Virus record (IMG/VR): IMGVR_UViG_2737471840_000002
Location: 1 to 12,082 of that record
Length of the DNA: 12,082 bases
Strand: one strand, 5' to 3'
DNA from: a virus
Lineage: Duplodnaviria; Heunggongvirae; Uroviricota; Caudoviricetes
Shown: positions 1-12,082 of the stretch, piece after piece
How the letters are laid out: every line of letters starts with the position of its first letter
Position numbering within the stretch: the stretch's first letter is position 1
The notes under the pieces: generated by a model
The model's input: only the letters and a program-made list of their open reading frames with translations
Told to the model about the DNA's origin: nothing
The model's database searches: none
Program-made: the position numbers and the translations under genes

Positions 1-61
1 ATTGAGTGGGAATGATTAACAGCTAACTCATAGCAACTCATTCCTATTCAGATACTAATTT

Positions 62-94
62 AACCCTCTGTTTTTACAGAGGGTTTTTGTTTTT
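62..94 (+). terminator. Rho-independent terminator (10-bp stem 62-71/76-85, loop TTTT, then T-rich tract)
   Basis: Seen in sequence: aaccctctgt-tttt-acagagggtt followed by tttgttttt. Probably terminates an upstream + strand gene outside the window (possibly the integration target gene). Confidence 0.7.
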
Positions 95-140
95 ATGTAT
101 TCATTTCTATTCACTCTACACCATATTTTTCGGCGGTACA

Positions 141-180
141 GGTGACGGTATTACCTTAAAGGTATACTCTCATACCGTCA
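141..180 (+). promoter_or_regulatory. Integrase upstream control region: operator-like site TTACCTTAAAGGTAT (151-165), -10-like TATACT (163-168), nested inverted repeats TGACGGTA (144-151)/TACCGTCA (173-180) and GGTAT-N6-ATACC (161-176)
   Basis: Direct inspection; the palindromes are exact. The operator-like site matches the TTACC-N5-GGTAA motif found elsewhere in the window at 9 of 10 positions. Confidence 0.45.
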
Positions 181-207
181 TGAAAATGGTTTCTATACGG
201 GTGAATT

Positions 208-1464
208 GTGCTTACCGATACAAAATTAAAAAACCTCAAGCCGCAGGACAAACTGTACAAGGTCTCCGATCGTGACGGGCTGTATGTAGCTGTGCTTACG
301 TCAGGCACGGTCTCGTTTCGCTACGACTACCGTATCAACGGTCGCCGCGAAACGCTGGTAATCGGGCAGTATGGGCGTGACGGTATCAGCCTGGCAGAAG
401 CGCGAGAAGAACTGATTGCTGCAAAGAAGCTGCTTAAAGCAGGCCAGTCACCGGCTGCGGCTAAACGTGACGGTATCAAAAAGATTCGTGGTGCCGAGAC
501 GTTTGCGGTACATACCGACAGTTATATGAAACACGTCATCCTGGCTGACAGTACCCGCGCAATGAAACAGGCGGTGATCGACCGTGACATACTTCCGGTT
601 CTTGGCAATAAAATGATGGCTGAAATTACCACATCGATGGTTCGTGATTTGTGTGACCGGATTGTCGAACGCGGTGGCCGGGCAACAGCAGTGCAGGCCA
701 GGGAGATCATCAGCAGCGTATACCGTCATGCCAATGACCGTGGTCATGGTTTGTTTAATCCTGCGGCTGACATTAAACCTTCGTCTATCGCCATATTTAA
801 ACCACGAGAGCGAACACTGACACCAGAAGAAATTGGCCTGTTCTTCCGCACGCTGGATGCCATTGGTGCTATGGGCACTATGAAAATGGCTTTAAAGCTG
901 GTGCTTATCACTATGGTTCGTAAAGGCGAATTCACCAATGCAACGTGGGATGAAATAGATTTTAAAAAATGGACATGGACAATTCCTTCAGACCGCATGA
1001 AGGGAAGCCGGGCGCACGTTATTTACCTGCCTAAACAGGCACAGGATATATTGGTTGGGTTGCAGATGTGCGCTGGTGGAAGTGAATATCTGGTTCCTGG
1101 TCGTTACAATTTCCGGAAGCCATTATCTAATGCCGCGCTGAACTCTCTGATCGACAGAACGGTGAAAATAATAAATGAAGATGGTGAGCATATTCAGGAC
1201 TTCACCGTACACGATATGCGCCGTACAGCAAGTACGTTGTTGCATGAGGCTGGTTATCCTTCAGACTGGATTGAAAAGGCTCTGGCACATGAGCAGAAAG
1301 GTGTGCGCGCCGTATATAACAAAGCGGAATACGCCAGACAGCGCGCCTACATGTTGCAGCAGTGGGCCGATATGATTGATTCCTGGATTGACGGGGAGCA
1401 TACGGATCTGATTCCGTTCTCCCCGTCGAAGTTTGAGAAGTGGATGGAAGACAGTAATAAATAA
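208..1464 (+). CDS. int: Tyrosine-type site-specific integrase, P4-like (N-terminal DUF4102-type arm-binding domain)
   Basis: GTG start at 208. N-terminus LTDTKLKNLKP...DGLYVAV is typical of P4-family integrases; C-terminal catalytic region has HDMRRTASTLL (R, H) and LAHEQKGVRAVYNKAEY (catalytic Tyr context). 418 aa. Confidence 0.9.
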   Translation: MLTDTKLKNLKPQDKLYKVSDRDGLYVAVLTSGTVSFRYDYRINGRRETLVIGQYGRDGISLAEAREELIAAKKLLKAGQSPAAAKRDGIKKIRGAETFAVHTDSYMKHVILADSTRAMKQAVIDRDILPVLGNKMMAEITTSMVRDLCDRIVERGGRATAVQAREIISSVYRHANDRGHGLFNPAADIKPSSIAIFKPRERTLTPEEIGLFFRTLDAIGAMGTMKMALKLVLITMVRKGEFTNATWDEIDFKKWTWTIPSDRMKGSRAHVIYLPKQAQDILVGLQMCAGGSEYLVPGRYNFRKPLSNAALNSLIDRTVKIINEDGEHIQDFTVHDMRRTASTLLHEAGYPSDWIEKALAHEQKGVRAVYNKAEYARQRAYMLQQWADMIDSWIDGEHTDLIPFSPSKFEKWMEDSNK

Positions 1465-1466
1465 TT

Positions 1467-2126
1467 CTATCCTTCCTGGACTTTGGTAAGCGTCAGATTT
1501 CCGCAGAACACTGCGCCGGTGTCGATGTACATCTGGTTTGCATACACCAGTGGGTGATGTGCTGGCGTATGACCGAAGATGAACAAATCGGCACCGGTTA
1601 TCTCCGAGACAATACCGTCCTGCGCGTCGCTAACCCGTTCACGATTCCATATCACCATTTCTTCTGGTACTGGCTTATCGAATGCGTATTCGTTGTGCGG
1701 GTAGTCTGCGTGACAGATGACGACCTTCTTATTGCCGGTAACCAGTTCGATAATCATCGGGAGGTTGGTAATCTTTGGCAGAAGGTATTTGAGTTGCACA
1801 TCCTGCTCAGAATCAAGTTGGTGCCACCATCCACCGCCGTTTGACATCCAATGTCCGAAACTTCCGCCGTTGACCAGTGCATCCAGCATCATCTGCTCAT
1901 GGTTGCCACGAACAGCTCGGAACCACGGCATAGTAATCAAATCCAGGCATTCGACGTTTTCAGCGCCGCGGTCAACAAGGTCACCAACGGAAATAAGTAA
2001 ATCGCGCGCCGGGTCGAATGAAACTTTGTCGAGTTCGTTCATCAGCAGCGTGTAGCACCCATGCAGATCGCCGACGACGAAGATATTGCACCAGTCAGCG
2101 CCATTGATGCGTTGATATAGGTTCAT
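1467..2126 (-). CDS. Lambda-type Ser/Thr protein phosphatase (PPP-family metallophosphoesterase; PrpA/PrpB/NinI-like)
   Basis: Motifs GDLHG, GDLVDRG, GNHE in canonical order; strong recalled similarity to E. coli PrpA. Start assigned to internal ATG ([12 protein letters not shown]...) at 2126, forming an ATGA overlap with the upstream gene stop; the track ORF extends to 2246 but that would overlap the methylase gene. Confidence 0.88.
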
Positions 2127-2773
2127 GCTGCACGCTCCCGCCCCTGGTTGTCTATTGGTGACACCGGAGCATTGCTGAATGCATTTGTTAATCCGCCAAT
2201 ATCCAACGCGTATCCAGGGTGTAGTTGCACTGCCGGGTCTTCGCACTGATTACCCCAAACATCGAAGCCATGAGACGACTGGCGGGCGAACAGTTCAATG
2301 CGAGAAACATCGCCTAACAATTGCACAAGTTTTTCACGAACGACATCTGGTTTTCTTGAATGCTCAAGCCGCGGTGCGGTAAATGACTGAACGATCCCTG
2401 CATTAATGCGCGGAGGTAGTTTTCCCTTTACTGCAAACAGGCAATCTTCACTATTGGCGCGAGTCATGTGTCCCATACCCATAACCAGTTTATCTGGTTG
2501 TCGACTACCACATTTTATCCACGTGAAGCCCTTCATCGTCATCAGACGGAATCCCCAGGCTTCAACAACTTTTAGTGCTTCGAGTGGTTGTGTTGGCACC
2601 CACCACATGGCCAACAGACAGTTTTCATCGGCCAAATCCCACACAGGAAGGCGGCAGATATCCAGCACACTCATAACCGGATATTTAAAACCGGCACCGC
2701 GATTACCATCTGCGGCTTTGTCCCGGTATACCCAGGGTGGATCTGCATAGATTAGTGTGTATTTCTTAGTCAT
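2123..2773 (-). CDS. MT-A70 family DNA N6-adenine methyltransferase (orphan, no cognate restriction gene visible)
   Basis: N-terminal motif LIYADPPW (DPPW catalytic motif) right after start MTKKY; ATG at 2773 preceded by GGGGTGG SD-like sequence; track ORF starts 12 nt further upstream at GTG 2785. Confidence 0.8.
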
Positions 2774-3065
2774 AAACCACCCCACAACATCCTATGCCGC
2801 TATAGTCGCCACGGCGAAGGCCGTTACCGTTTGTGATACATTGGTCCCTGCGAACCGCGATCCTTGCACGCTCAACATCACCAGAAGCAACATCCATACA
2901 CTGAAGCCAAAGGTGGGCGGCAATGCGGAACTGCCCTTTTTTCTCTCTTTCAATCGCGCGTTTTTCGATCTCTATCGCCGCAGGAGTAACGGCAACAACC
3001 TTTGAAGGGCTGCGCATTGAAACCTTGTTCATGTGATATTTTTCAAGTCGGCTTAACTTTCTCAC
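2766..3065 (-). CDS. Hypothetical protein (99 aa from GTG 3065; alternative ATG starts at 3032 or 3017)
   Basis: ORF in same orientation as flanking operon genes, overlaps methylase start by 8 nt (coupling). No motif recognised. Start uncertain. Confidence 0.5.
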   Translation of the reverse strand: MRKLSRLEKYHMNKVSMRSPSKVVAVTPAAIEIEKRAIEREKKGQFRIAAHLWLQCMDVASGDVERARIAVRRDQCITNGNGLRRGDYSGIGCCGVVYD

Positions 3066-3149
3066 TTAATCCAACCCTCTCTGAAAATTAATGCCAGCAG
3101 ATAAAGCCATGCTGAAACAGAGGCCAGGAATAAGTACCATCCTGACCAT
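3066..3149 (-). CDS. Candidate 27-aa hydrophobic micro-ORF (MVRMVLIPGLCFSMALSAGINFQRGLD)
   Basis: Not in the ORF track (too short). ATG at 3149-3147 preceded by GGAG; stop abuts GTG 3065 of the next ORF; fills most of the 109-nt gap after the AlpA-like gene. Could be chance. Confidence 0.25.
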   Translation of the reverse strand: MVRMVLIPGLCFSMALSAGINFQRGLD

Positions 3150-3174
3150 TTGCTCCAGTGCCTTAGCAGCGCAC

Positions 3175-3423
3175 TCATGCAGCGTTGCTCACAGGACGAT
3201 ATACACGTTGCTGAACAGGAGGCTTTTTACCCTGGAACTCTGCCGGGCTTGCTGCCTGACGTTCATCAAGCCAACGCTCAACTTCATCACGGTTCCATGC
3301 GCAGCGTTTATCGGTGATATACCAGCGTTTAGGAAATTCCCCTGCGCGCTCCATACGGTCGATAGTGCTCCATGACAGTGGCACCACCGCCAGGAGTTCC
3401 TTCTTACCTAATGCACCTTTCAT
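3175..3423 (-). CDS. AlpA-family phage regulatory protein (excisionase-like HTH; Phage_AlpA/MerR-like fold)
   Basis: 82 aa; the segment KKELLAVVPLSWSTIDRMERAGEFPKRWYITDKRCAWNRDEVERWLDE matches the AlpA/Xis-type winged-helix pattern (conserved W after the HTH, EV..W). RBS AGAGAGG 6 nt upstream of ATG 3423. Confidence 0.75.
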   Translation of the reverse strand: MKGALGKKELLAVVPLSWSTIDRMERAGEFPKRWYITDKRCAWNRDEVERWLDERQAASPAEFQGKKPPVQQRVYRPVSNAA

Positions 3424-3444
3424 AAATACCTCTCTTGGTTGCAG

Positions 3445-3465
3445 TGCGGCGCGCGTGGCGCCGCG
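3445..3465 (-). other. GC-only stem-loop (7-bp stem gcggcgc / gcgccgc, 5-nt loop) in the recT-alpA intergenic spacer, no U-tract
   Basis: Seen in sequence between stop of 3473-4354 gene and start of 3175-3423 gene. Confidence 0.5.
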
Positions 3466-3472
3466 GTGGTGG

Positions 3473-4354
3473 TTACATAGATGTTTCGTTTAATTCTTCC
3501 CGACGAACGCTGTAAACGTCGGTGGCTTTTGCCAGCAGTTCGTCATCATCTGAAAGTTTTTGTGCAATGTATTTGTAAGCCTTATCCAGTTCGGAGACAG
3601 TGCTGTAATTCATCGCTGCGCTGGTAAAGGCCATCAGCATTTCTTCTGGATCACGGCTATCCGCTTTACGCGTTTGCTCATCAGGCTTTTTCGCTGGTTT
3701 AGCGTTGATCAGACTGTTCATTCCCGCAGCAGTGGTCGTTTGCGGAGTAATGTCTCGCTCAACGCGCGGTGCCGTTTCCTGTAATTCGTCAGGGGTGTAA
3801 ACACCGAGAAGTACATCAGGAGCGTGCAGGCGAGCCCATCGTTTCGTGCAAAGATAGGCAAGCTGCTGGCGCGGATCCTGTTCCCACAATGGAGAGTTAC
3901 GCACTCCGGCTTGCGCCATACTGATGGTAAGCTCACGGGGTTCTGCTTCTCCTTTAAGAACTGCTGACACAGTTACCGTCAGATTCGGTGATTTATCTGT
4001 TTTGCCGTTAACATTCGACCAGTCACCGCTCCAGCGATAATTCAGGCGTGTCGCTAGCAGGCTGGAAGAGGATACGACCGCGTTTACCAACTGTGCTTCG
4101 TAGCCTAACGTTCCGTTTACCACATGCGTTTTCTGCGCCACGGCGAAAGGATTCATTCCCCACTGTGCCGCCTGCATGGTCACCGCCAGACAATCGGCAG
4201 TTTTGCCTTCAAGATGTTTCGGTACAGTCGCTTTGCTTTGTGACATCAACTCCGCGAAACGCACCAGTTGATTCATGCCCTCCGGGCTGAAGATTGCCGC
4301 AGCAGTACCTACAGTTGCGCCTGGTTGTGATGTGATTGCGATATCATTGCTCAT
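3473..4354 (-). CDS. Putative phage single-strand annealing protein / recombinase (RecT/Bet-like)
   Basis: 293 aa; immediately downstream of and ATGA-coupled to a PD-(D/E)xK exonuclease, the classic exo+SSAP pairing. Family assignment is by context and loose recall, not by a confirmed motif. Confidence 0.55.
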   Translation of the reverse strand: MSNDIAITSQPGATVGTAAAIFSPEGMNQLVRFAELMSQSKATVPKHLEGKTADCLAVTMQAAQWGMNPFAVAQKTHVVNGTLGYEAQLVNAVVSSSSLLATRLNYRWSGDWSNVNGKTDKSPNLTVTVSAVLKGEAEPRELTISMAQAGVRNSPLWEQDPRQQLAYLCTKRWARLHAPDVLLGVYTPDELQETAPRVERDITPQTTTAAGMNSLINAKPAKKPDEQTRKADSRDPEEMLMAFTSAAMNYSTVSELDKAYKYIAQKLSDDDELLAKATDVYSVRREELNETSM

Positions 4355-5172
4355 ACGTACATATCCTGTTTACGTGCCCAGTCAGGGCGTTTAATAATTT
4401 CCACTCCGCCCCACTCATCGTTGATGCGGCATTCGTGATAGGTATTCAGATCCCGGCGGAACAGAGCGTGCCCGGCATCGACATCCGGCGCATCCAGCTC
4501 GAACACGCGTACCGGATACCGACCACAATCAATGCTTTCGCTCACGGCAAGAAAGAAAAAACCATGCGGCTGACCAGTAACCTTCATTGCGCCTTCGCGG
4601 TACATTGCGTCCTGCACGTGGTAGCGGAATTCCTCGATGTGGCGTGCAAAACGGTCCATATCTGCAACCTTTTTCACGTCGACGATCACGTTGTGCTCGT
4701 TCAGCCATTTGTCTGGACGAATGCGGCACAACTCACCAGTATCTTCATCGTTCCAGTACATTGATGCTTCGCAGTAACCAGGTGCTTCCAGCATCCAGCG
4801 TGCCGCCGGGTGAGCCATTGCGCTATCACGCATCAGCTCCAGTTTCCGCCACTGCTCGGCATCAAGTACCGTAATCCCCATATCCGCCACATCACGAAGA
4901 AATGCCTCTTCGTCAGCTTTACCTTGTTTCGTCCGACGATCGAATTTCGGTGAAACAATGAAGCGTTTGTCGAACTCTCCAGGCTCCAGAAGCAGACAGT
5001 GCAATGCAGTTCCCATATCCAGTGCAGACTTTTTCTCTTCGTCTTCTGGTGCTGCCTGAACCCATTTAAGAAGCGCCGGATTCTTGGCAACCATGTCTAG
5101 TTGCGACTTACTCACGCCGTCACCGGCGTGGTAGTCTTCGTTGCTGATGTCGAAATAAATTCCCGGTTTCAT
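4351..5172 (-). CDS. PD-(D/E)xK-superfamily nuclease (phage recombination exonuclease, RecE C-terminal domain/YqaJ-like)
   Basis: 273 aa; acidic/K motif region (…NVIVDVKKVADMD…), located in recombination module; ATGA overlaps on both sides. Confidence 0.6.
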   Translation of the reverse strand: MKPGIYFDISNEDYHAGDGVSKSQLDMVAKNPALLKWVQAAPEDEEKKSALDMGTALHCLLLEPGEFDKRFIVSPKFDRRTKQGKADEEAFLRDVADMGITVLDAEQWRKLELMRDSAMAHPAARWMLEAPGYCEASMYWNDEDTGELCRIRPDKWLNEHNVIVDVKKVADMDRFARHIEEFRYHVQDAMYREGAMKVTGQPHGFFFLAVSESIDCGRYPVRVFELDAPDVDAGHALFRRDLNTYHECRINDEWGGVEIIKRPDWARKQDMYV

Positions 5173-5468
5173 GCCGCGTCCCTCTGTCCATCAAGCTGAT
5201 CCGCCAGATCCCAGCGGGCGATAATTGCCATTGCCTCTCGCCGATAGGCATCCATCAGTTCTTCGAACTCAGGGCTGTCTTTAGCAGCCTCCAGTACTTC
5301 CTGACGAACGCCTTTGACTGTTACAACGTCGAAAGTTGAGGACAGTTGATGAAGTCGGATGCTCTCAATCAGTTCAACTTGTCGGTCATATAGCTGTTCT
5401 GACAGGCGGTAGTCCTTGTCGAATGCCAGCATGATTTTTTGAAGATTTTTCTGCTGATTAACGTTCAT
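5169..5468 (-). CDS. Hypothetical protein (99 aa from ATG 5468; track gives 101 aa from GTG 5474)
   Basis: RBS GAGGTG upstream of ATG 5468; stop overlaps exonuclease start (ATGA). Confidence 0.6.
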   Translation of the reverse strand: MNVNQQKNLQKIMLAFDKDYRLSEQLYDRQVELIESIRLHQLSSTFDVVTVKGVRQEVLEAAKDSPEFEELMDAYRREAMAIIARWDLADQLDGQRDAA

Positions 5469-5475
5469 ACCCACC

Positions 5476-6510
5476 TCAATATTTGATATACGCGTCCTGC
5501 ACTTTGCCGCCAGCGATAGCCAACATTGCTTTCTGCGCGAATTCTTCGGGAATGCCTTGGGCTATCAGATCTGCGATTACTCTGCGGTTAACGGTACGGC
5601 GATGCTCTTTATCTGCAGCTCGGCGCGCTTCTTCGTCGGCGATACGCTTCTGTTCGTCAAGGCGGGCTTTTTCTGCCGCCTCTTGGCGTCGGCGTTCCTC
5701 GGCAACGGCTTCTTCTTTTTCGCGTCGTGCGCGCTGCTCTGCTTCAATTCGCTGACGTTCTGCTACTTCAGCACGTGCTTTTTCTTCCGCCGCCAGGCGT
5801 GCCGCAGCCTCAATTTCAGCTTTCGCTTTTTGTTCAGCTTCGAGCCTGGCCTGTTCAGCAGCTTCCCGGCGGATATTCTCTTCTCGCTCAATGCGCGCTT
5901 TTTCCTCCGCTTCTTTGCGAAGTCGCTCCAGCTCAGCGGCTTCATGCTCGCGTTTTTGAGCTACTGCGAGTGATTCTTCCAGTTTCTGGATGGTTGAATC
6001 CTTGGCTACTCCAGCTTCTGCTGCGTACTCCTGCCAACTTTCATCAAGTGCTACTGATTTAGCCTCTTGAATTCGTTCCTGAATATCAGATGATGGCAAG
6101 TAGTTTCCGGAGAGATCGATCACGTCAGCTAGTGCTCGCAAATTTGTCAGGCGTTGTTGCAGTGCTTCAGTGCGTAATTTCTCAGCATTTTCCCACTCGG
6201 TGAGTGGGCGGCGTACTTCATCACGAAGACGATCGCATTCGGTTACGAAGCGTCGTAACTCTGCTTCAACTACTTTCGGCTGTTCTTTCAGGCGTTTCAG
6301 ATAATCACGTCCTGGTTTTTCTACCGCTGTTTTACTTCTTGAAACCTTCGCAGCCAGAGATGCAATGCGCTTTCTGCCTTTGTCTGTGCTAATGTCAGGC
6401 ACTTCATTAACACCTTCACGGATCTGCTCGAGAAACTTTTCCAGCCCTTTTTCAACGTAAATTCTTGGTGCCATGTCTGGTGTGATTTCGATGATTGACA
6501 ATTCACTCAT
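5476..6510 (-). CDS. Hypothetical phage protein with long E/A/R/K-rich coiled-coil (low-complexity) segment
   Basis: 344 aa; residues about 185-300 are an (E-A-x-x-K/R-A-R)n-like charged helix; globular N- and C-terminal parts. Function not recognised. Confidence 0.7.
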   Translation of the reverse strand: MSELSIIEITPDMAPRIYVEKGLEKFLEQIREGVNEVPDISTDKGRKRIASLAAKVSRSKTAVEKPGRDYLKRLKEQPKVVEAELRRFVTECDRLRDEVRRPLTEWENAEKLRTEALQQRLTNLRALADVIDLSGNYLPSSDIQERIQEAKSVALDESWQEYAAEAGVAKDSTIQKLEESLAVAQKREHEAAELERLRKEAEEKARIEREENIRREAAEQARLEAEQKAKAEIEAAARLAAEEKARAEVAERQRIEAEQRARREKEEAVAEERRRQEAAEKARLDEQKRIADEEARRAADKEHRRTVNRRVIADLIAQGIPEEFAQKAMLAIAGGKVQDAYIKY

Positions 6511-6518
6511 TTGCTAAC

Positions 6519-6668
6519 CTACTCCCATATCTCGTTATCGTTGGCCACATCGCGAGCTTCTTTGCTGACGAAAGCCCACTTAATGCCTTCCTGTAAGGTG
6601 CGGAACTTCCAGCTCATGAATCCGCATGCAGTAACGCAGTACCAACCGTTGATGATTTTCCACTGCAT
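6519..6668 (-). CDS. Candidate small protein, 49 aa (MQWKIINGWYCVTACGFMSWKFRTLQEGIKWAFVSKEARDVANDNEIWE), first gene after pL-like promoter
   Basis: Not in ORF track (<60 aa). ATG 6668-6666 with GAGG 9 nt upstream; stop 8 nt before start of 344-aa gene. Confidence 0.45.
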   Translation of the reverse strand: MQWKIINGWYCVTACGFMSWKFRTLQEGIKWAFVSKEARDVANDNEIWE

Positions 6669-6687
6669 AACTTGTTACCTCGGTCTG

Positions 6688-6702
6688 TTACCGTTGAGGT
6701 AA
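6688..6702. promoter_or_regulatory. Operator-like palindrome TTACC-GTTGA-GGTAA (OL-proximal, overlapping pL -10/+1)
   Basis: Exact 5+5 inverted repeat with 5-bp spacer. Confidence 0.6.
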
Positions 6703-6730
6703 TAATTATGCGTATATGGTTTGATGTCAA
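6700..6730 (-). promoter_or_regulatory. pL-like promoter: -35 TTGACA (plus coords 6725-6730), AT-rich -10 (about 6702-6708)
   Basis: Consensus -35 hexamer on minus strand, 16-17 bp spacer to AATTAT/TAATTA; flanked by two operator palindromes. Confidence 0.5.
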
Positions 6731-6749
6731 TAGATATGAGTTAAAAAAA

Positions 6750-6764
6750 TTACCAGTTAGGTAA
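6750..6764. promoter_or_regulatory. Operator-like palindrome TTACC-AGTTA-GGTAA (OL-distal)
   Basis: Exact 5+5 inverted repeat with 5-bp spacer. Confidence 0.6.
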
Positions 6765-6776
6765 TCGAATAGGCAA

Positions 6777-6800
6777 TAAAAAAGCCGCCATAAGGCGGCT
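6777..6800 (-). terminator. Rho-independent terminator for repressor gene (stem agccgcc/ggcggct, loop, then 6 U on minus strand)
   Basis: Seen in sequence 22 nt downstream of repressor stop. Confidence 0.75.
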
Positions 6801-6821
6801 TACTTACTGAAAAATATGGTT

Positions 6822-7406
6822 TTATTGTTTGTTTTTTTCGTTCTGGTTGATGACAAATTCAATGTAACTTTCGATCTTTGCTTTCTCGGTTTCGGGTAAC
6901 AATGCGTAGCGCGAGCGATCATAGTTGATGGTCGCAGGGTCGTGCGGGTGAATCAGTAATTCATAGCCGTGACGCCCGAATGCGGATGCAACATTCTCCA
7001 GGGTGGAAATGGAAACGCTGACCTCATTGTTTAACAGGCGGCTGATTGTCACCTGGGCGACGCCGGATGCGCGGTGTAGTTTTCCCTGCGTTGAAAGGTC
7101 GCGGCTTTCGCTCATCCAGCGTTCCAGGTTGTGAGCCGCCAGCTGACCAATGTCGCTTGGGCCGACAGGCTGAAAACCTTCCTGAGAAAGCGAGCGATCG
7201 ATATCAAGCCAGTTACGTGGTTTATTGGCGGCAGCTTCAATTTTTCGCGCAACCTGGTCGCCGATAACCTTCTTGCCAAGAGCCCAGCGGTTTACCAGAT
7301 TTGCCTGAGTTCCAAGTTTTTCTGCCATCCGCGTCTGAACACCATTGAATTCACGGTCGATCAAGTCGTTGAGATTTTGCCTGCGGACGTCTTGGATACT
7401 TTTCAT
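6822..7406 (-). CDS. CI-like prophage repressor with two XRE-type helix-turn-helix domains and no LexA-like S24 peptidase domain
   Basis: 194 aa. HTH-1 about residues 20-60 (QTRMAEKLGTQANLVNRWALGKKVI), HTH-2 about residues 110-150 (ASGVAQVTISRLLNNEVSVSISTLENVA). Position and orientation equivalent to lambda cI (divergent from cro-like gene, followed by terminator and pL). No S24 motif visible. Confidence 0.65.
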   Translation of the reverse strand: MKSIQDVRRQNLNDLIDREFNGVQTRMAEKLGTQANLVNRWALGKKVIGDQVARKIEAAANKPRNWLDIDRSLSQEGFQPVGPSDIGQLAAHNLERWMSESRDLSTQGKLHRASGVAQVTISRLLNNEVSVSISTLENVASAFGRHGYELLIHPHDPATINYDRSRYALLPETEKAKIESYIEFVINQNEKNKQ

Positions 7407-7429
7407 TTTCTGGAAAATCGCCTCATATA

Positions 7430-7448
7430 TGAATCAGTAGATGATTCA
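7430..7448. promoter_or_regulatory. Perfect 7-5-7 palindrome TGAATCA-gtaga-TGATTCA, 24-42 bp upstream of repressor start
   Basis: Seen in sequence; distinct from the TTACC/GGTAA motif. Confidence 0.45.
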
Positions 7449-7461
7449 ATTTAAAGCAATA

Positions 7462-7524
7462 TTACCCAACAGGTAAATGCACCCCATAGGTAACTATCCT
7501 TGATTTTTGTTACCTTATGGGTGA
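7462..7524. promoter_or_regulatory. OR-like tripartite operator: TTACC-CAACA-GGTAA (7462-7476), gcACC-CCATA-GGTAA (7479-7493), TTACC-TTATG-GGTgA (7510-7524)
   Basis: Three copies or near-copies of the same palindrome between the divergent repressor and Cro-like genes. Confidence 0.65.
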
Positions 7525-7535
7525 ATATTTATTAT
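7507..7535 (+). promoter_or_regulatory. pR-like promoter: -35 TTGTTA (7507-7512), 17-bp spacer, -10 TATTAT (7530-7535)
   Basis: Hexamer match and spacing; overlapped by operator 7510-7524. Confidence 0.45.
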
Positions 7536-7560
7536 CTGAAATAAATATCAGGCAATAGCT

Positions 7561-7791
7561 ATGAGCGATAACGAACATTTCGATTTCAAAAAGCACTGGC
7601 TTGCACTTACTCCGGATGAGCGTGAAGCCTTCGCACAGGAAGCCGGAACGACGAGTCACTATATCCAGACTCACTTAACAGGTAAGCGCAAAATGCCAGG
7701 TAAAGTATTGATGAATGGGCTTTTTAAAGCCTGTAAAACAAGACAATGGCTGCGCTCAAAAGCAGAACTGGCATACTTCTTCTACTCATGA
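7561..7791 (+). CDS. Cro-like small HTH regulator (putative)
   Basis: 76 aa, divergent from repressor across operator region; segment EREAFAQEAGTTSHYIQTHLTGKRK resembles Cro/YdaS-type HTH. Weak RBS. Confidence 0.5.
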   Translation: MSDNEHFDFKKHWLALTPDEREAFAQEAGTTSHYIQTHLTGKRKMPGKVLMNGLFKACKTRQWLRSKAELAYFFYS

Positions 7792-7813
7792 TATCCAGCT
7801 ACAACCCTCTGTA

Positions 7814-7838
7814 GACCGCCACCCGGCGGTCTTTTCAT
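7814..7838 (+). terminator. Rho-independent terminator (stem gaccgcc/ggcggtc, loop accc, then TTTT) downstream of Cro-like gene
   Basis: Seen in sequence. Confidence 0.65.
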
Positions 7839-7846
7839 ATCTATTC

Positions 7847-7861
7847 GTACCTCAAAGGTAA
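7847..7861. promoter_or_regulatory. Operator-like palindrome GTACC-TCAAA-GGTAA (9 of 10 match)
   Basis: Immediately after terminator, upstream of candidate -35 TTGATC (7879-7884). Confidence 0.45.
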
Positions 7862-7941
7862 TAAAAAACCAAATATGGTTGATCTTTTTTTTGTGTCAGC
7901 ACAAAATGACCGTAATCCCAATACTAATAGCAGGGCTTACC

Positions 7942-8142
7942 ATGGAAATCATTACACGTATTGATGCCGCAAAGCGCGGACTTAAACGCTACTACACCGG
8001 AAAAACATGTAAGCACGGACATGACAGTGAACGCTGGGTTTACAACGGACACTGTGTTGAGTGCACCATGGAATCAAACCGTCGTATCAGGGCAGAGATT
8101 AAGCAGATCATGATTAATTCCTCCCCACAACATTCAAGCTGA
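7942..8142 (+). CDS. Small Cys/His-rich putative zinc-ribbon protein (66 aa from ATG 7942; possible longer form from ATG 7906 with hydrophobic N-terminus)
   Basis: CKHGH...HCVEC arrangement; occupies the cII-like position between cro-like gene and replication genes. Start uncertain. Confidence 0.5.
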   Translation: MEIITRIDAAKRGLKRYYTGKTCKHGHDSERWVYNGHCVECTMESNRRIRAEIKQIMINSSPQHSS

Positions 8143-8157
8143 TAGCGGAGATTAATC

Positions 8158-8973
8158 ATGAGCAGACATGCAACAGATTGGGCCTGGGAGACAGATCCAG
8201 GTAGCTCGTCATTAAAGCTCATACTGCTCTCGATGGCTGACAGAGCCGATGAATATAACCTCTGCTACCCCAGCATAGAACGCCTCGTTAAAGACACTTG
8301 CCTGAACAAAAAAACCGTGCAGGCCGGGCTTATATCGCTCATGAAAATGGGGCTTATTTCAGATACCGGAGAGAGAAAGGGAGCGACGAAAAGAGTGCGG
8401 GTTTTCTCTCTTAATATAACCAAAAACGGGAACATTAAAGGCAACCGGGAAGGGGGTAATGAACCCGAAAACGGTAATGTTACCGAAAACGGGAATATAC
8501 CCAAAAACGGGATGTTGAATGATCCCAAAAACGGGATGTTGAATGATCCCAAAAACGGGATCCAGAACCAGTCATATAACCAGTCATTTAACCAAGAGAG
8601 GGAGAGCAGGACAAAAAACGGGGATTCTGTGCATCATGACCCCGGCGCAAACAACGCCGTGATGAATAACTTTGTTCCTCCTGGTGGGCCAGGGCAATTA
8701 GGCAAATTTGTCATGCATGAACAATGGCAGCCATCAGATGACTTTCTTCGGAAAAGCTCATTGCAGGGGATCTACCTGGACAGTCTGCCAACGGCACAGG
8801 AACTTGCAGAGTTCAGAATTTACTGGATGGCTGAGGGTAAGGCATACCATCAGGCACAGTGGGAGCAGAAGCTGGCAAGGCGGCTGCAGATTAGCAGACA
8901 GAAGCAATCAACATTACCTGATAACAACGTTCCGCACTGGAACAGCCCTGAAGCATGGGAGGATTTCTTGTGA
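8158..8973 (+). CDS. Replication initiator / replisome organizer (lambda O-like: N-terminal HTH DNA-binding domain, iteron-encoded linker, C-terminal DnaT-like domain)
   Basis: 271 aa; N-terminus LKLILLSMADRADEYNLCYPSIERLVKDT is HTH-like (replication-initiator type); the central NG(N/M)-rich repeats are encoded by the iterons; directly followed by and GTGA-coupled to a P-like gene. Confidence 0.75.
   Translation: MSRHATDWAWETDPGSSSLKLILLSMADRADEYNLCYPSIERLVKDTCLNKKTVQAGLISLMKMGLISDTGERKGATKRVRVFSLNITKNGNIKGNREGGNEPENGNVTENGNIPKNGMLNDPKNGMLNDPKNGIQNQSYNQSFNQERESRTKNGDSVHHDPGANNAVMNNFVPPGGPGQLGKFVMHEQWQPSDDFLRKSSLQGIYLDSLPTAQELAEFRIYWMAEGKAYHQAQWEQKLARRLQISRQKQSTLPDNNVPHWNSPEAWEDFL
8419..8624. 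repeat. Origin-like iteron array: at least 6 copies of (A/T)CC(C/G)AAAACGG(G/T)A at 8419, 8464, 8482, 8499, 8523, 8547 (spacing 18-24 bp) plus a degenerate copy near 8611
   Basis: Direct repeats counted in sequence; last three copies are exact 24-bp tandem repeats (cccaaaaacgggatgttgaatgat). Embedded in the initiator gene as in lambda ori. Confidence 0.8.
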
Positions 8974-9755
8974 ACAACGTTTTTACCGCGATACAAAACC
9001 GTGACGGAGAAGCCCTTTCTCGCATGTCAGGTTATGAGCATCAGTACACCAACAATGACAACGTGGTGAACATGTCAGCAGAGAGGCTTGTTGATGCCCT
9101 TTTCAAACAGCTGAAACAACTGTTTCCGGCGGCAGTGGTAACCAACCTGAAGACGCCAGAGCAGGAAGTTGCTGCAAAACAGCAGTGGATTGCTGCGTTT
9201 GCCGAAGGGGGGATCCGAACCCGTGAACAGGTTTCTGCTGGTATGCGCCACGCCCGCGCCAGTGAGTCTCCGTTCTGGCCGTCGCCAGGGCAATTCATCA
9301 AGTGGTGTAAAGACAGCAAGATGGTTCTTGGCGTCACCATTGACGATGTGATGGCGGAGTTTCACCGGTACAGCAAGGAAAAAAGTTTATATCCTGGTGG
9401 TCCCGAAAGATTCCCGTGGCGGCATCCGGTTATGTACTGGGTCGTATGTGATACCCGCCGTGCAATGTATCAGCGCCAGCTTAGCGAGATTGAGGTTGAG
9501 AAACACGCGCGCAGGCTGCTCGATGATTGGGCGAAAAAGGTGGCTTCCGGACAGCGGATACCCGATCCGGTGATCAGCATACAGGCAAAGTCAGAGCCCA
9601 TGAGTACACCTCCGGACACAGGGAGAGACGTTTACCATCCACCAGGGCGAAGTTTCGGGTGCATGCCTAACGCCGCCACCCTTGGGGGAATAACACCGGC
9701 GCAGTGGCTGATGGAGGAATACAGGCGGGGAAAGGCGGCAGGATTTATCAAGTAA
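8970..9755 (+). CDS. Replication protein P-like helicase loader (lambda P family)
   Basis: Recalled similarity to lambda P: GMRHARASESPFWPSPGQFIKWC vs lambda GMRVARRQNRPFLPSPGQFVAWC; GTG start at 8970 with GGGAGGA SD 6 nt upstream, overlapping O-like stop (GTGA). Track ORF begins at ATG 8955. Confidence 0.85.
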   Translation: MNNVFTAIQNRDGEALSRMSGYEHQYTNNDNVVNMSAERLVDALFKQLKQLFPAAVVTNLKTPEQEVAAKQQWIAAFAEGGIRTREQVSAGMRHARASESPFWPSPGQFIKWCKDSKMVLGVTIDDVMAEFHRYSKEKSLYPGGPERFPWRHPVMYWVVCDTRRAMYQRQLSEIEVEKHARRLLDDWAKKVASGQRIPDPVISIQAKSEPMSTPPDTGRDVYHPPGRSFGCMPNAATLGGITPAQWLMEEYRRGKAAGFIK

Positions 9756-9792
9756 TACCAGCGCGATAGCGCATTTTTTTACGCCTTAACAA

Positions 9793-9807
9793 TTACCTAT
9801 TGGGTAA
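9793..9807. promoter_or_regulatory. Operator-like palindrome TTACC-TATTG-GGTAA
   Basis: Exact match to motif, upstream of promoter-like hexamers. Confidence 0.55.
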
Positions 9808-9826
9808 TAAAATATTCTAAATTCTA

Positions 9827-9855
9827 TTGATTTCGTGTCTTATGTGGTTTTTAAT
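9827..9855 (+). promoter_or_regulatory. Promoter-like: -35 TTGATT (9827-9832), 17-bp spacer, -10 TTTAAT (9850-9855)
   Basis: Hexamers and spacing; sandwiched between two operator-like palindromes in the same way as the pL-like promoter. Confidence 0.45.
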
Positions 9856-9869
9856 TACCTCAGAGGTAA
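9855..9869. promoter_or_regulatory. Operator-like palindrome TTACC-TCAGA-GGTAA overlapping the RBS of the downstream gene
   Basis: Exact match; GAGG of the site doubles as SD for ATG 9873. Confidence 0.55.
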
Positions 9870-9872
9870 ATC

Positions 9873-10217
9873 ATGAGAAAACAGATACAGGCTCTTGGTC
9901 GACTCAAAACAGGTCAGATGAACAAAACAGAATCTGCGTATTGCCAGCACCTTGAGCTGCGTAAACGTGCAGGAGAAATCGTCTGGTATCGATTTGAGGG
10001 TATCAAGCTGCGGTTAGCTGACAACACGTTCTATACGCCCGATTTTGCTGTGATGCTCGCCACCGGCGAGATGGAACTGCACGAAGTGAAAGGTTTCTGG
10101 ACCGACGACGCCAGGGTGAAAACCAAAGTCGCCGCAGATCAGTATCCGTTCCGAATCATCGGGGTAACGGTTAAACCAAAGAAAGCAGGTGGTGGCTGGA
10201 ACATCGAAGAGTTCTGA
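9873..10217 (+). CDS. DUF1064-like phage protein (114 aa)
   Basis: Recalled family resemblance (MRKQIQALGRLK...YRFEGIKLRLADNTFYTPDF...HEVKGFWTDDARVK). Not verified by search. Confidence 0.55.
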   Translation: MRKQIQALGRLKTGQMNKTESAYCQHLELRKRAGEIVWYRFEGIKLRLADNTFYTPDFAVMLATGEMELHEVKGFWTDDARVKTKVAADQYPFRIIGVTVKPKKAGGGWNIEEF

Positions 10218-10278
10218 ATCGACGATCTTTTTAGTTATCAATGTAATCAATAAGTTATGTGGATAAGCGAGGGTAAAG

Positions 10279-10827
10279 ATGGAAAGTAATATCAAAGGGT
10301 TAGTTGCCGCCGGGCATGAGATGGCTTCGGAACTGAAAGCAGAATGTGGTGCCGTTGATATGCGCAGTGTGGCAAAGCTGATCAGCGATTTGGCAACGCA
10401 ACTGGAAGTGCAACTGGTGCGTGCTAATGCGCTGGCAGCGGAGAATGCGGGGCTGAAACATGCAATGGCTGTAACTCTTGAGCATGTGTCGGTCACGGAT
10501 GCAGGGCAGGCTGGTGTTGCTGCAATGATTATCAACGATGCCCTGCACCACAGCGAAACTCCCGCCACCGATGCTTTCCTTGCTGAAATTCGTGCGGAAG
10601 CACGCAACGAGGGGATTAACTATACCGCCAGCCGTCTTGCTGCTGCGTTCAATCACGGATTTATCAATAAGTCTTTACGTGAAGTTTTCGACGTTACACG
10701 CATGATTCTGTCAGCGAAAGAAGAGTTAGCTAATGAACCGCACCCGATTGATGGCCTGTCCAGTGAATATGCGGAGAAATCCCTAGAAGAATGGGCGGAG
10801 CAGCTTCGCAAAGGAGGCAACCAGTGA
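10279..10827 (+). CDS. Hypothetical phage protein (182 aa), possibly Ea22-like
   Basis: ATG with GAGGG RBS; stop overlaps the next gene start (GTGA). No motif recognised with confidence. Confidence 0.55.
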   Translation: MESNIKGLVAAGHEMASELKAECGAVDMRSVAKLISDLATQLEVQLVRANALAAENAGLKHAMAVTLEHVSVTDAGQAGVAAMIINDALHHSETPATDAFLAEIRAEARNEGINYTASRLAAAFNHGFINKSLREVFDVTRMILSAKEELANEPHPIDGLSSEYAEKSLEEWAEQLRKGGNQ

Positions 10828-11576
10828 GCGAAATTAATTACCAGGCACTGCGTGAGGCGGCGGAACGTGCAATTCCAGCAATGGAACGCCTGTTAATGTT
10901 GCCAGCTGATGATGATTTGTTAAGTGAACAGGAACTTAAAGATTACGGTGTGGATATTGATGCGCTCAACGCCTTCAAATTTCTGGCCGGACCAGAAACC
11001 GTGCTGGCACTACTGGATGAACGGGAAAGGAACCAGCAATACATCAAATCCCGCGATCAGGAGAACGAGGATATTGCGCTAACGGTAGGGAAGCTGAGAG
11101 TTGAGCTTGAGGAAGTAAAACAACACGCTGAAGAATTATCCGAAACCAAGGCTGTTCGTAACCAATGGCGGCCAGATATTTGCCCAATAACCGGACGTGC
11201 ATTTTTCATGTGGATTGAGCATCCAACATTGGGAAATGTGCCGACATATGGTGGCCCATTAGATAGTTACACCATTCCAACAAAGGACGGTGACGGTGAG
11301 TTTTCATGTGAGCGTTACGATCATGATTTTGGCGGTTGGGTAGAAAGCGAATGTCTTGGGTTATATCTGATTGATGATAGAGAACAATGCAGGGTCTACG
11401 AACTGGAGGAACGCGTTAAGGAACTGGATGCTCGGGAAATATCGCTCCCGGAACGTAGCAGCATGCTTCATCGAACAGATTTTCACGATGATTACCAAAC
11501 GGTAATGGCATACAAAGTTTCTGAAGTCATCGCTGCAATCCGCGCCGCAGGCATTCGCATCAAAGGAGGTGAGTAA
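10824..11576 (+). CDS. Ead/Ea22-like family protein (250 aa from GTG 10824)
   Basis: N-terminus SEINYQALREAAERA resembles the conserved start of Ea22-like proteins (recall); AAGGAGG SD 6 nt before GTG. Track ORF begins at 10791 but has no SD. Confidence 0.55.
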   Translation: MSEINYQALREAAERAIPAMERLLMLPADDDLLSEQELKDYGVDIDALNAFKFLAGPETVLALLDERERNQQYIKSRDQENEDIALTVGKLRVELEEVKQHAEELSETKAVRNQWRPDICPITGRAFFMWIEHPTLGNVPTYGGPLDSYTIPTKDGDGEFSCERYDHDFGGWVESECLGLYLIDDREQCRVYELEERVKELDAREISLPERSSMLHRTDFHDDYQTVMAYKVSEVIAAIRAAGIRIKGGE

Positions 11577-11752
11577 TGCGTGTGGCATGTATCGGCTTGT
11601 TACCGTACCCGACTCGTTTTTGGGCTTCTGCGCTAATTGCAAAGCCGTATGTCCTGATGGCTGACAACATCATCCCGGCACCAAAGCGCCGCCATACCGG
11701 TATTGCAGCGGCACGACGAGCAGCAAAGAGACGCAGGAGAGCAAAGCGATGA
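11576..11752 (+). CDS. Small basic protein, 58 aa (C-terminus AARRAAKRRRRAKR)
   Basis: Not in ORF track. ATG 11576 overlaps preceding stop (TAATG) with AGGAGGTGA SD; stop overlaps next start (ATGA). Confidence 0.4.
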   Translation: MRVACIGLLPYPTRFWASALIAKPYVLMADNIIPAPKRRHTGIAAARRAAKRRRRAKR

Positions 11753-11925
11753 AAAACCGTAAGGCAAAACGACTTTTTTTACAGCGACCTGTGCGTGTGG
11801 TGGAGCTGGTTATTAGCAACCATAAGATAGCGGTACTCCATCCATTTGGTCAGGTGGCTTTTGCCGCAAAGCGTAAGCCTACTGCGTCACAGAACAGGCG
11901 GAAGAAAGGGTACGCTGTAAGATGA
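11749..11925 (+). CDS. Small basic protein, 58 aa (MKNRKAKRLFLQRP...), paralog of next ORF
   Basis: Not in ORF track. ATGA overlaps on both ends; shares N-terminus MKNRKAK with the following ORF. Confidence 0.4.
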   Translation: MKNRKAKRLFLQRPVRVVELVISNHKIAVLHPFGQVAFAAKRKPTASQNRRKKGYAVR

Positions 11926-12082
11926 AAAACCGTAAAGCAAAGATTCTGTTAGTTCGTAGAAACGCTCCTGGCGTCTGGCAGTGGGTGAGACTCAGCAACC
12001 GACGGATGGGGTTGATGAAATATTACGGGATGATGGATTGTGGTTTTTGCAAAAAGCCCAGCGCGGCGCAAAACCGCTGGAA
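11922..12082 (+). CDS. Small basic protein, partial (at least 53 aa; MKNRKAKILLVRR...), runs off the window end
   Basis: Not in ORF track. Same N-terminal heptapeptide as the preceding ORF; no stop before the window ends. Confidence 0.4.
   Translation, partial: MKNRKAKILLVRRNAPGVWQWVRLSNRRMGLMKYYGMMDCGFCKKPSAAQNRW

Follow-up and report, generated by a model that had tools for sequence, protein, structure and literature searches.

Phage phi80 (phi80/Lula) carries two adjacent genes, agt and gamL, whose products are linked to the host nucleases that act on double-stranded DNA ends. According to work by Rotman et al. in 2012, GamL reportedly inhibits both RecBCD and SbcCD, agt is said to be the GamL antidote, and phi80 lysogens reportedly behave as recD and sbcCD phenocopies. 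A related gene lies in the stretch of viral DNA analysed here, IMG/VR record IMGVR_UViG_2737471840_000002, positions 1 to 12,082 (referred to as the window; 12,082 nucleotides, nt). On its minus strand, this window encodes a 344-amino-acid (aa) protein and a 99-aa protein, followed by a RecE-type nuclease and the annealing protein RecT. The 344-aa protein is assigned to the phi80 Agt family, and the two proteins together are read, with slightly more doubt than belief, as an Agt-type modifier and a candidate Gam-like host-nuclease inhibitor.

The family assignment rests on sequence comparison and is solid. BLASTP aligned the 344-aa protein with phi80/Lula Agt (YP_007947961.1) at 56% identity (expect value, E, 8e-97), and residues 2-344 matched phrog_1376 ('unknown function') with an E of 3e-122, a PHROG shared with Sf6 gp33, JBD44 gp65, and others. 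The lead to phi80 was an annotation note in Erwinia phage EhrS_49. In the phi80 GenBank record, agt is described as 'anti-toxin for Gam; Mog (modifier of Gam)' and gamL as 'gam-like host nuclease inhibitor; toxic without Mog'. The gene order there is agt, 7 nt, gamL, rec (RecT-like), and exo, against 344-aa gene, 7 nt, 99-aa gene, exo, and recT in the window. Full-length similarity, architecture (a conserved N-terminal core, the charged helix, and a C-terminal domain of some 40 aa with an aromatic last residue), and an early-left position before gam-like and recombination genes thus all agree in placing the 344-aa protein in the Agt/Mog family (PHROG 1376). A previous interpretation made from the letters and open reading frames (ORFs) alone, here called the sequence-only reading, had found no assignable family for it, which the clear homology to phi80 Agt/Mog overturns. 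The genes of the operon to which it belongs are as follows:

6519..6668, minus strand: 49-aa ORF, first of the early-left operon (phrog_898, E 5e-38; homologue of epsilon15 p37)
5476..6510, minus strand: 344-aa gene of the Agt/Mog family, PHROG 1376 (ORF call, phrog_1376, BLASTP to phi80 Agt)
5469..5475, minus strand: spacer GGTGGGT of 7 nt between the 344-aa and 99-aa genes (read from the sequence)
5169..5468, minus strand: 99-aa gene, ATG at 5468 and stop at 5169-5171 (phrog_856)
4351..5172, minus strand: RecE-type PD-(D/E)XK nuclease of 273 aa (Pfam DUF3799, E 6e-22; phrog_412)
3473..4354, minus strand: RecT single-strand annealing protein of 293 aa (Pfam RecT, E 5e-31; phrog_561)

The Agt family is very large and lacks a Pfam model. 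A search with the N-terminal 200 residues of the 344-aa protein found, at the 50% identity level, at least 5,156 clusters with E ≤ 1e-3 and 3,069 with E ≤ 1e-10, at least 600 loci in IMG/VR hold a gene of the family, and homologues occur in 181 phage records, among them Sf6 gp33, D3, JBD44 gp65, Ab31 ORF39, mEp234, and many Vibrio and Pseudomonas phages. With thousands of homologues of the larger protein and the 99-aa gene present in 543 of 5,426 complete E. coli genomes, both genes are real, with the lengths given in the sequence-only reading. Sequence searches of Pfam, PADLOC, and PDB returned no family for the 344-aa protein, and NCBIfam gave only a sub-threshold TolA match; likewise, 64 diverse members yielded no relevant Pfam family, the few weak and scattered matches having an E of 1e-4 or worse. 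A literature search on the PHROG identifiers, Sf6 gp33, JBD44, and Agt/GamL retrieved no functional studies beyond the phi80 work.

The junctions between these genes recur in other members of the family. The stop codon of the 344-aa gene lies inside the Shine-Dalgarno sequence of the 99-aa gene (GAGGTG; TGAGGTG with the stop included, 5476-5478). Read at the sequence level, the junction before GamL in one sister locus (L057) has the same form, the Agt-like stop falling within a Shine-Dalgarno TGAGGTG and followed by a 7-nt spacer, while annotated coordinates give a spacing of 7-8 nt from the Agt-like gene to GamL in phi80, to Erf in JBD44, and to Bet in Ab31. This recurring combination of a stop within the Shine-Dalgarno sequence and a 7-8 nt spacing suggests a conserved translational coupling of the Agt-like gene to whichever gene comes next. 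The chained overlaps proposed from the letters alone hold at two junctions only, where ATGA overlaps join the 99-aa gene to exo (5169-5172) and exo to recT (4351-4354); the step from the 344-aa to the 99-aa gene is the 7-nt spacer, and the 49-aa ORF and the 344-aa gene are 8 nt apart. The longest ORF for the 99-aa gene begins at a GTG two codons upstream of the ATG at 5468 and would give 101 aa.

Four segments can be distinguished in the 344-aa protein:

6190..6510, minus strand: N-terminal conserved domain, aa 1-107 (66% identical to phi80 Agt)
5941..6189, minus strand: middle subdomain, aa 108-190, found in 'long' members and absent or replaced in phi80 Agt
5611..5940, minus strand: charged E/R/K/A helix, aa 191-300, a length-variable spacer (88% E/K/R/A/Q/D)
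5479..5610, minus strand: C-terminal small helical domain, aa 301-344, ending ...GKVxxxxIxY (91% identical to phi80 Agt)

Across 64 diverse members, the N-terminal domain is the best-conserved part, with K60 and P102 invariant and 15 further positions conserved at 90% or more. It contains a basic helix (aa 43-80; net charge +9, isoelectric point, pI, 10.8) with the motif PD.sT.KGR.RIASLA..VSRSKTAVEKPGR.YLK.LKE, and, after this helix, the motif LRDEVR.PLTEWE. Conservation peaks at aa 36-115, which includes this strongly basic stretch, and the pattern suggests that this part binds something and is more than a structural rod. At the other end, Y344 is conserved in at least 90% of the 64 members, and the C-terminal domain also matches phrog_21365. 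The BLASTP alignment to phi80 Agt collapses at aa 108-185. The family is a domain mosaic: the middle subdomain is variably present, and between homologues the degree of identity in one part (N-terminal, helix, or C-terminal) is uncoupled from that in the others.

The charged helix of about 110 residues recognized in the sequence-only reading is confirmed at aa 191-300, and the ends that it separates are conserved. The helix has no heptad periodicity, shares 75% identity with the phi80 Agt helix, and is encoded by DNA in which the AT skew reaches -0.54. The underlying segment at about 5600-5950 had been suspected of slippage and length variation. The length variation is borne out: 120 close homologues range from 333 to 355 aa through in-frame indels of 4, 7, 11, and 15 residues, all at about aa 250-285 in the charged helix except for 4 residues lost near aa 178 in one 333-aa homologue, and conservation among them exceeds 90% over the first 200 residues. 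Tandem Repeats Finder detected no tandem DNA repeat in the purine-rich 5600-5950 segment. An AlphaFold2 (AF2) model built on the 64-sequence alignment has a predicted local distance difference test score (pLDDT) of 88 and is weak only at 244-253; the score is about 90 in the N-terminal domain and 95-98 in the middle subdomain. In this model, a short N-terminal element is predicted to lead into very long helices (43-126, 157-245, and 249-317) and a small C-terminal helical domain. A Foldseek search of BFVD with the model found uncharacterised phage proteins only.

Members of this family usually bear the label 'hypothetical' or 'coiled-coil', or the mistaken label 'TolA'; the charged helix, by its composition, gives rise to the annotations 'TolA' and 'coiled-coil domain-containing'. 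A structural or envelope protein of TolA type can nonetheless be considered, as several phage records name homologues 'TolA protein' and NCBIfam reports TolA at E 0.0017. That match scores 17.4 bits against a cutoff of 213 and is confined to the low-complexity charged helix (aa 155-301), leaving the other TolA domains unmatched, and the gene sits in the early-left region, outside the structural module. The long E/K/R/A-rich helix is also shared with TolA domain II and with ER/K single alpha-helices, a likeness of composition only. A second suggestion of this kind starts from the window's nuclease, which covers only RecE residues 606-873 (NCBIfam exodeoxyribonuclease VIII positions), such that the upstream proteins might be split-off remnants of the N-terminal 600 residues of RecE. 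Neither the 344-aa nor the 99-aa protein gave anything against Rac RecE (866 aa) with BLASTP and hhalign (probability 0.1% or below), and no link between the Agt family and the 'RecE-2' proteins of PMC12315714 was found. Both suggestions are effectively refuted and carry almost no weight beside the assignment to the Agt/Mog family.

The 99-aa protein belongs to a narrow enterobacterial family (phrog_856, E 4e-55) with a homologue in epsilon15 p36, and AF2 predicts a helical hairpin (pLDDT 70). It is acidic (pI 4.71, net charge -6), as are GamL (93 aa, pI 4.70) and lambda GamS (98 aa, pI 4.99). Its gene and gamL occupy the same slot. In seven sister loci (L057, L058, L061-L064, and L070), a GamL homologue stands in the place of the 99-aa gene within the layout 49-aa ORF, Agt-like gene, RecE-type nuclease, RecT, and in L057 the nuclease and RecT are 62-66% identical to those of the window. 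In an eighth locus (L082), GamL likewise follows the Agt-like gene, and the contig ends there. GamL itself is a distant homologue of lambda Gam (45% identity over 33 aa, E 2e-4). No homology between the 99-aa protein and GamL was detected by BLASTP (E 5.5), hhalign (0.3%), or profile-to-profile comparison (0.1%), and an hhalign match of 33 residues to lambda Gam 100-132, with a probability of 12%, was judged non-significant.

The 99-aa protein thus fits the description of a Gam-type protein, being small, acidic, helical, and encoded directly before exonuclease and annealing genes, and its likeness to GamL is one of position and physicochemical character only, from which a similar function may be ascribed to the 99-aa protein. 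Because its gene occupies the GamL slot, the 99-aa protein is a better inhibitor candidate than the 344-aa protein. In the sequence-only reading, the larger protein had been offered as an inhibitor of host nucleases, a recombination mediator, or an anti-defence factor. A link to Gam-type biology is supported by the homology to phi80 Agt/Mog and by gene position; the role of inhibitor does not carry over, the homologue being described as a modifier. A further small gene has been noted at a comparable position in L017, a distant relative, where an unrelated, PHROG-negative ORF of 69 aa (6570-6779) lies between a 519-aa family member and a DUF3799 nuclease, and may be another occupant of the Gam slot.

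Genes of the Agt family stand before recombination modules. Among about 95 loci, and wherever enough downstream sequence was fetched, a gene for an annealing protein or exonuclease lies downstream of the Agt-family gene, on the same strand and within about 0-2 kb. The sole exception (L018) has an AAA_24 (Sak4-like) gene just upstream. The annealing proteins that follow are of several types: RecT with a RecE-type nuclease or YqaJ, Erf with an exonuclease, or a Red-beta-like protein with an exonuclease and SSB (Ab31). Between the Agt-family gene and the recombinase, four arrangements are found, namely direct abutment at 7-10 nt, the 99-aa gene, GamL, or cIII/kil.

The type of annealing protein and exonuclease changes independently of the upstream genes. 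In two pairs of loci (L020 and L027; L028 and L031), the 49-aa, Agt-like, and 99-aa genes share 96-98% DNA identity to the last base of the 99-aa gene, past which the RecE-type nuclease and RecT are exchanged for YqaJ and RecT2; the 344-aa and 99-aa proteins remain 97-98% identical across this swap. JBD44 gp65 and Ab31 ORF39 are 100% identical, yet the next gene is Erf in the former and Red-beta in the latter. Exchanges of this kind, in which annealing protein and exonuclease are replaced as a cassette precisely at the gene boundaries of phages otherwise 96-99% identical, are clear cases of module swapping and were also seen between L012 and L100 (Erf against Red-beta-like). This lack of co-variation with the recombinase speaks against the Agt-like protein having either the annealing protein or the exonuclease as a specific physical partner, and favours a common target, either host end-processing nucleases or DNA itself. 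It also shows, together with the optional nature of the 344-aa gene described below, that stoichiometric co-expression of the four genes, as proposed from their chaining, had been an over-reading.

These neighbourhoods bear on a different explanation, in which the Agt-like protein is a recombination or replication mediator, that is, an elongated DNA-binding scaffold with the charged helix as its spacer, which would either tether ends or bring the annealing protein or SSB onto the DNA. Such a role would suit the near-constant adjacency to at least four recombinase families (RecT, Erf, and Red-beta-like downstream; Sak4-like upstream in one locus) as well as the conserved basic helix and the spacer helix of variable length. 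In Firmicutes phages, moreover, non-homologous genes (Mu-Gam-like, DUF1351, DUF2483, and Gp157) lie in the same upstream position, and a shared function has been proposed for them (PMC8093625). Set against this, the same gene, unchanged or nearly so, is found with unrelated annealing proteins and exonucleases, which makes a specific partnership unlikely; BAS recombineering and the growth of phiV10 and ZX5 proceed without an Agt-family gene; and no structural match to known mediators was obtained. A mediator is therefore judged improbable, and the pairing of an Agt-type modifier with a Gam-like inhibitor candidate is preferred.

The Firmicutes parallel shows, by analogy of position, that the slot upstream of the recombinase is a general feature of phage recombination modules. 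None of the families known from that slot could be connected with the 344-aa protein. With the query and 64 relatives, no Pfam match to DUF1351 (PF07083) was obtained at E ≤ 1, and hhalign against a 6-sequence DUF1351 alignment (Oenococcus phage phi9805 and relatives) gave 1.4%, a shallow template with which remote homology is possible. The query and the same relatives also gave no Pfam match to Gp157, and Mu Gam/Ku was rejected for the 344-aa protein, which has neither a Phage_Mu_Gam match in Pfam nor a Ku-like beta-barrel fold.

The 344-aa gene is also an optional component of its operon, as shown by one further feature of the window:

5469..6521, no strand assigned: presence/absence cassette relative to phiV10 and ZX5 (blastn and junction alignments)

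Homology to phiV10 and ZX5 ends at 5468, the ATG of the 99-aa gene, and restarts at 6522, just past the stop of the 49-aa ORF, and the compared flanks are 97.5-99.4% identical by blastn. The interval 5469-6521 is a precise single-gene indel. The gene is absent from most sequenced relatives, including plaque-forming phages, and this Agt-like allele occurs in 35 of the 5,426 complete E. coli genomes in which the 99-aa gene was counted. Loss of the protein without effect on growth had been named as evidence that would speak against the sequence-only proposal, and the plaque-forming phiV10 and ZX5, which lack the 344-aa gene, supply part of that evidence. The cassette also offers a ready-made isogenic comparison, with phiv142-3 carrying the gene and ZX5 and phiV10 lacking it.

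The preferred reading envisages a two-part system directed at host nucleases that act on double-stranded DNA ends (RecBCD, and SbcCD in phi80). The Agt-like protein would be its modifier or antidote half, an elongated helical accessory encoded by the second gene of the early-left operon and expressed from pL before the recombination genes. Its counterpart would be the product of the next gene, which is small, acidic, and helical: GamL in phi80 and the unrelated 99-aa protein here. By blocking RecBCD or SbcCD, the small protein would allow linear phage DNA and RecE/RecT intermediates to survive, and the Agt-like protein would tune or detoxify this inhibition. For this, its conserved basic helix (aa 43-80) and its C-terminal domain would engage DNA or a host target, and the recombinase would not be what it acts on. 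The observations from which this reading starts are the homology to Agt, the position before recombination modules, the equivalence of the 99-aa and GamL slots, and the independence from the type of annealing protein or exonuclease.

Several findings weigh against it. The 99-aa gene is kept without an Agt-like gene in phiV10 and ZX5, so that the two genes are separable, and since it is found in 543 genomes compared with 35 for the Agt-like allele, the 99-aa protein cannot be obligately toxic without Agt. Conversely, no small gene follows many members, which directly abut Erf, RecT, or Bet (D3, JBD44, Ab31, L016, and L091-L098), so that detoxifying GamL cannot be the only role of the Agt family. 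In addition, Sf6 has both an Agt-family member and the anti-RecBCD protein Abc2. Taken together, separable genes, members without a partner, and Abc2 in Sf6 imply that the Agt family must have an activity of its own.

Such an activity could amount to protection of DNA ends or inhibition of nucleases by the Agt-like protein itself, acting alone as an analogue of Gam, in which case the 99-aa protein does something else. The order orf39-bet-exo-ssb in Ab31 mirrors gam-bet-exo in lambda, and many members abut the annealing-protein gene with no small gene in between. According to its authors, the operon behind the Pseudomonas BAS recombineering system has no inhibitor of RecBCD, and Red-gamma had to be added (PMC6438905); moreover, members occur in mEp234 and EhrS_49, both scored as lacking a known anti-RecBCD gene (PMC12315714). 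The strongly basic charge of the conserved helix (aa 43-80; net +9) would also suit a stand-alone Gam-like role. However, the family co-occurs with GamL, in phi80 and in the eight sister loci, and with Abc2 in Sf6; the phi80 annotation describes a modifier or antidote and not an inhibitor; and the 344-aa protein shows no similarity to Gam, Mu Gam/Ku, or Abc2. We consider a stand-alone inhibitor unlikely, although it is, like the mediator, a live rival, and retain the two-part system as the preferred reading.

An extended version of the two-part system can be formulated, which is doubtful but would have wider consequences. In this version, the 99-aa protein (phrog_856, carried by about 10% of complete E. 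coli genomes) would represent a class of RecBCD/SbcCD inhibitor that is new and unrelated in sequence to those described, and Agt would be an overlooked, near-universal fifth component of the recombination modules of proteobacterial phages that binds host end-processing nucleases or DNA ends directly and converts full inhibition into a tolerable, recD-like, recombination-proficient state. If true, this would explain how phages scored without an anti-RecBCD gene cope with RecBCD, and why operons cloned without Agt, such as BAS from Ab31, need added Gam.

The window itself presents an ordinary, real gene pair, the larger gene of which is a new member of a named but little-studied family. What draws attention is how large and how neglected the Agt family is, together with the possibility that the 99-aa protein is a new analogue of Gam. 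Agt is the gene found most consistently just upstream of phage recombinases in Proteobacteria, yet the family goes unmentioned in a 2025 survey of lambdoid recombination modules (PMC12315714), and the BAS operon was cloned without Ab31 orf39 (PMC6438905). Control of RecBCD and SbcCD by Agt-like proteins together with the small proteins encoded after them, if confirmed, would bear on how phages escape host nucleases, on the triggers of defence systems that guard RecBCD, and on more efficient recombineering in non-model bacteria.

The stretch as a whole is the immunity and early-left region of an epsilon15/phiV10-like (Uetakevirus) E. coli prophage, and phage phiv142-3 is 98.3% identical to it over positions 3400-6900. 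From right to left on the minus strand, it encodes a cI-type repressor, a pL-like promoter, the 49-aa ORF, the 344-aa and 99-aa genes, the RecE-type nuclease, and RecT; beyond RecT follow AlpA, PerC, an MT-A70 methylase, and a phosphatase, with an integrase on the plus strand. The 49-aa ORF family (phrog_898) lies upstream of the Agt-like gene in 59 of the fetched loci. The elements that would control the operon are listed below:

6822-7406, minus strand: cI-type repressor, with a terminator at 6801-6782
6702..6730, minus strand: pL-like promoter TTGACA-17-AATTAT, a consensus match only
6688-6703 and 6750-6765: operator-like palindromes TTACC-N6-GGTAA on both sides of the pL-like promoter

Motifs related to these palindromes also lie between the repressor and cro genes (7464-7526). 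A DnaT-like replication protein (8158-8973, plus strand) contains an N/G/K-rich tandem peptide repeat, ...NGNIPKNGMLNDPKNGMLNDPKNGIQNQ.... On the minus strand, the longest ORF of the calcineurin-like phosphatase (1467-2246) overlaps the MT-A70 methylase gene (2123-2785) by 124 nt, and the true phosphatase start is probably an internal ATG (MNLYQRING...). At this position, phiV10 and ZX5 carry a small DUF1382 gene and phiv142-3 a small hypothetical gene. In the phiV10 RefSeq record (L003, NC_007804; 2074-3834), recE and recT are annotated as one fused coding sequence, which could be genuine or could reflect a frameshift from sequencing; the window (3473-5172) and most relatives have two separate genes that overlap by ATGA.

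Among known systems, the genes of Firmicutes phages (DUF1351/PF07083, Sipho_Gp157, DUF2483, and Mu-Gam-like) resemble the Agt-like gene in lying just before erf, sak4, or recT, and DUF1351 proteins, at about 300 aa, are similar in size to the 344-aa protein. Lambda Gam and phi80 GamL share with the 99-aa protein the slot, a similar length, a pI of about 4.7-5.0, and an all-helical prediction, and differ from it in that sequence and profile similarity are absent. The closest counterpart of the 344-aa protein is phi80 Agt. The phi80 protein lacks the middle subdomain (aa 108-190), its gene is followed by gamL instead of the unrelated 99-aa gene and by Exo/RecT-like instead of RecE-nuclease/RecT recombination genes, and the status of an optional cassette is a feature of the window gene in contrast to phi80 agt. 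In both phages, a protein with a charged central helix is encoded in the pL operon and joined through a 7-nt junction to an acidic helical protein of about 95 aa, with the recombination genes following.

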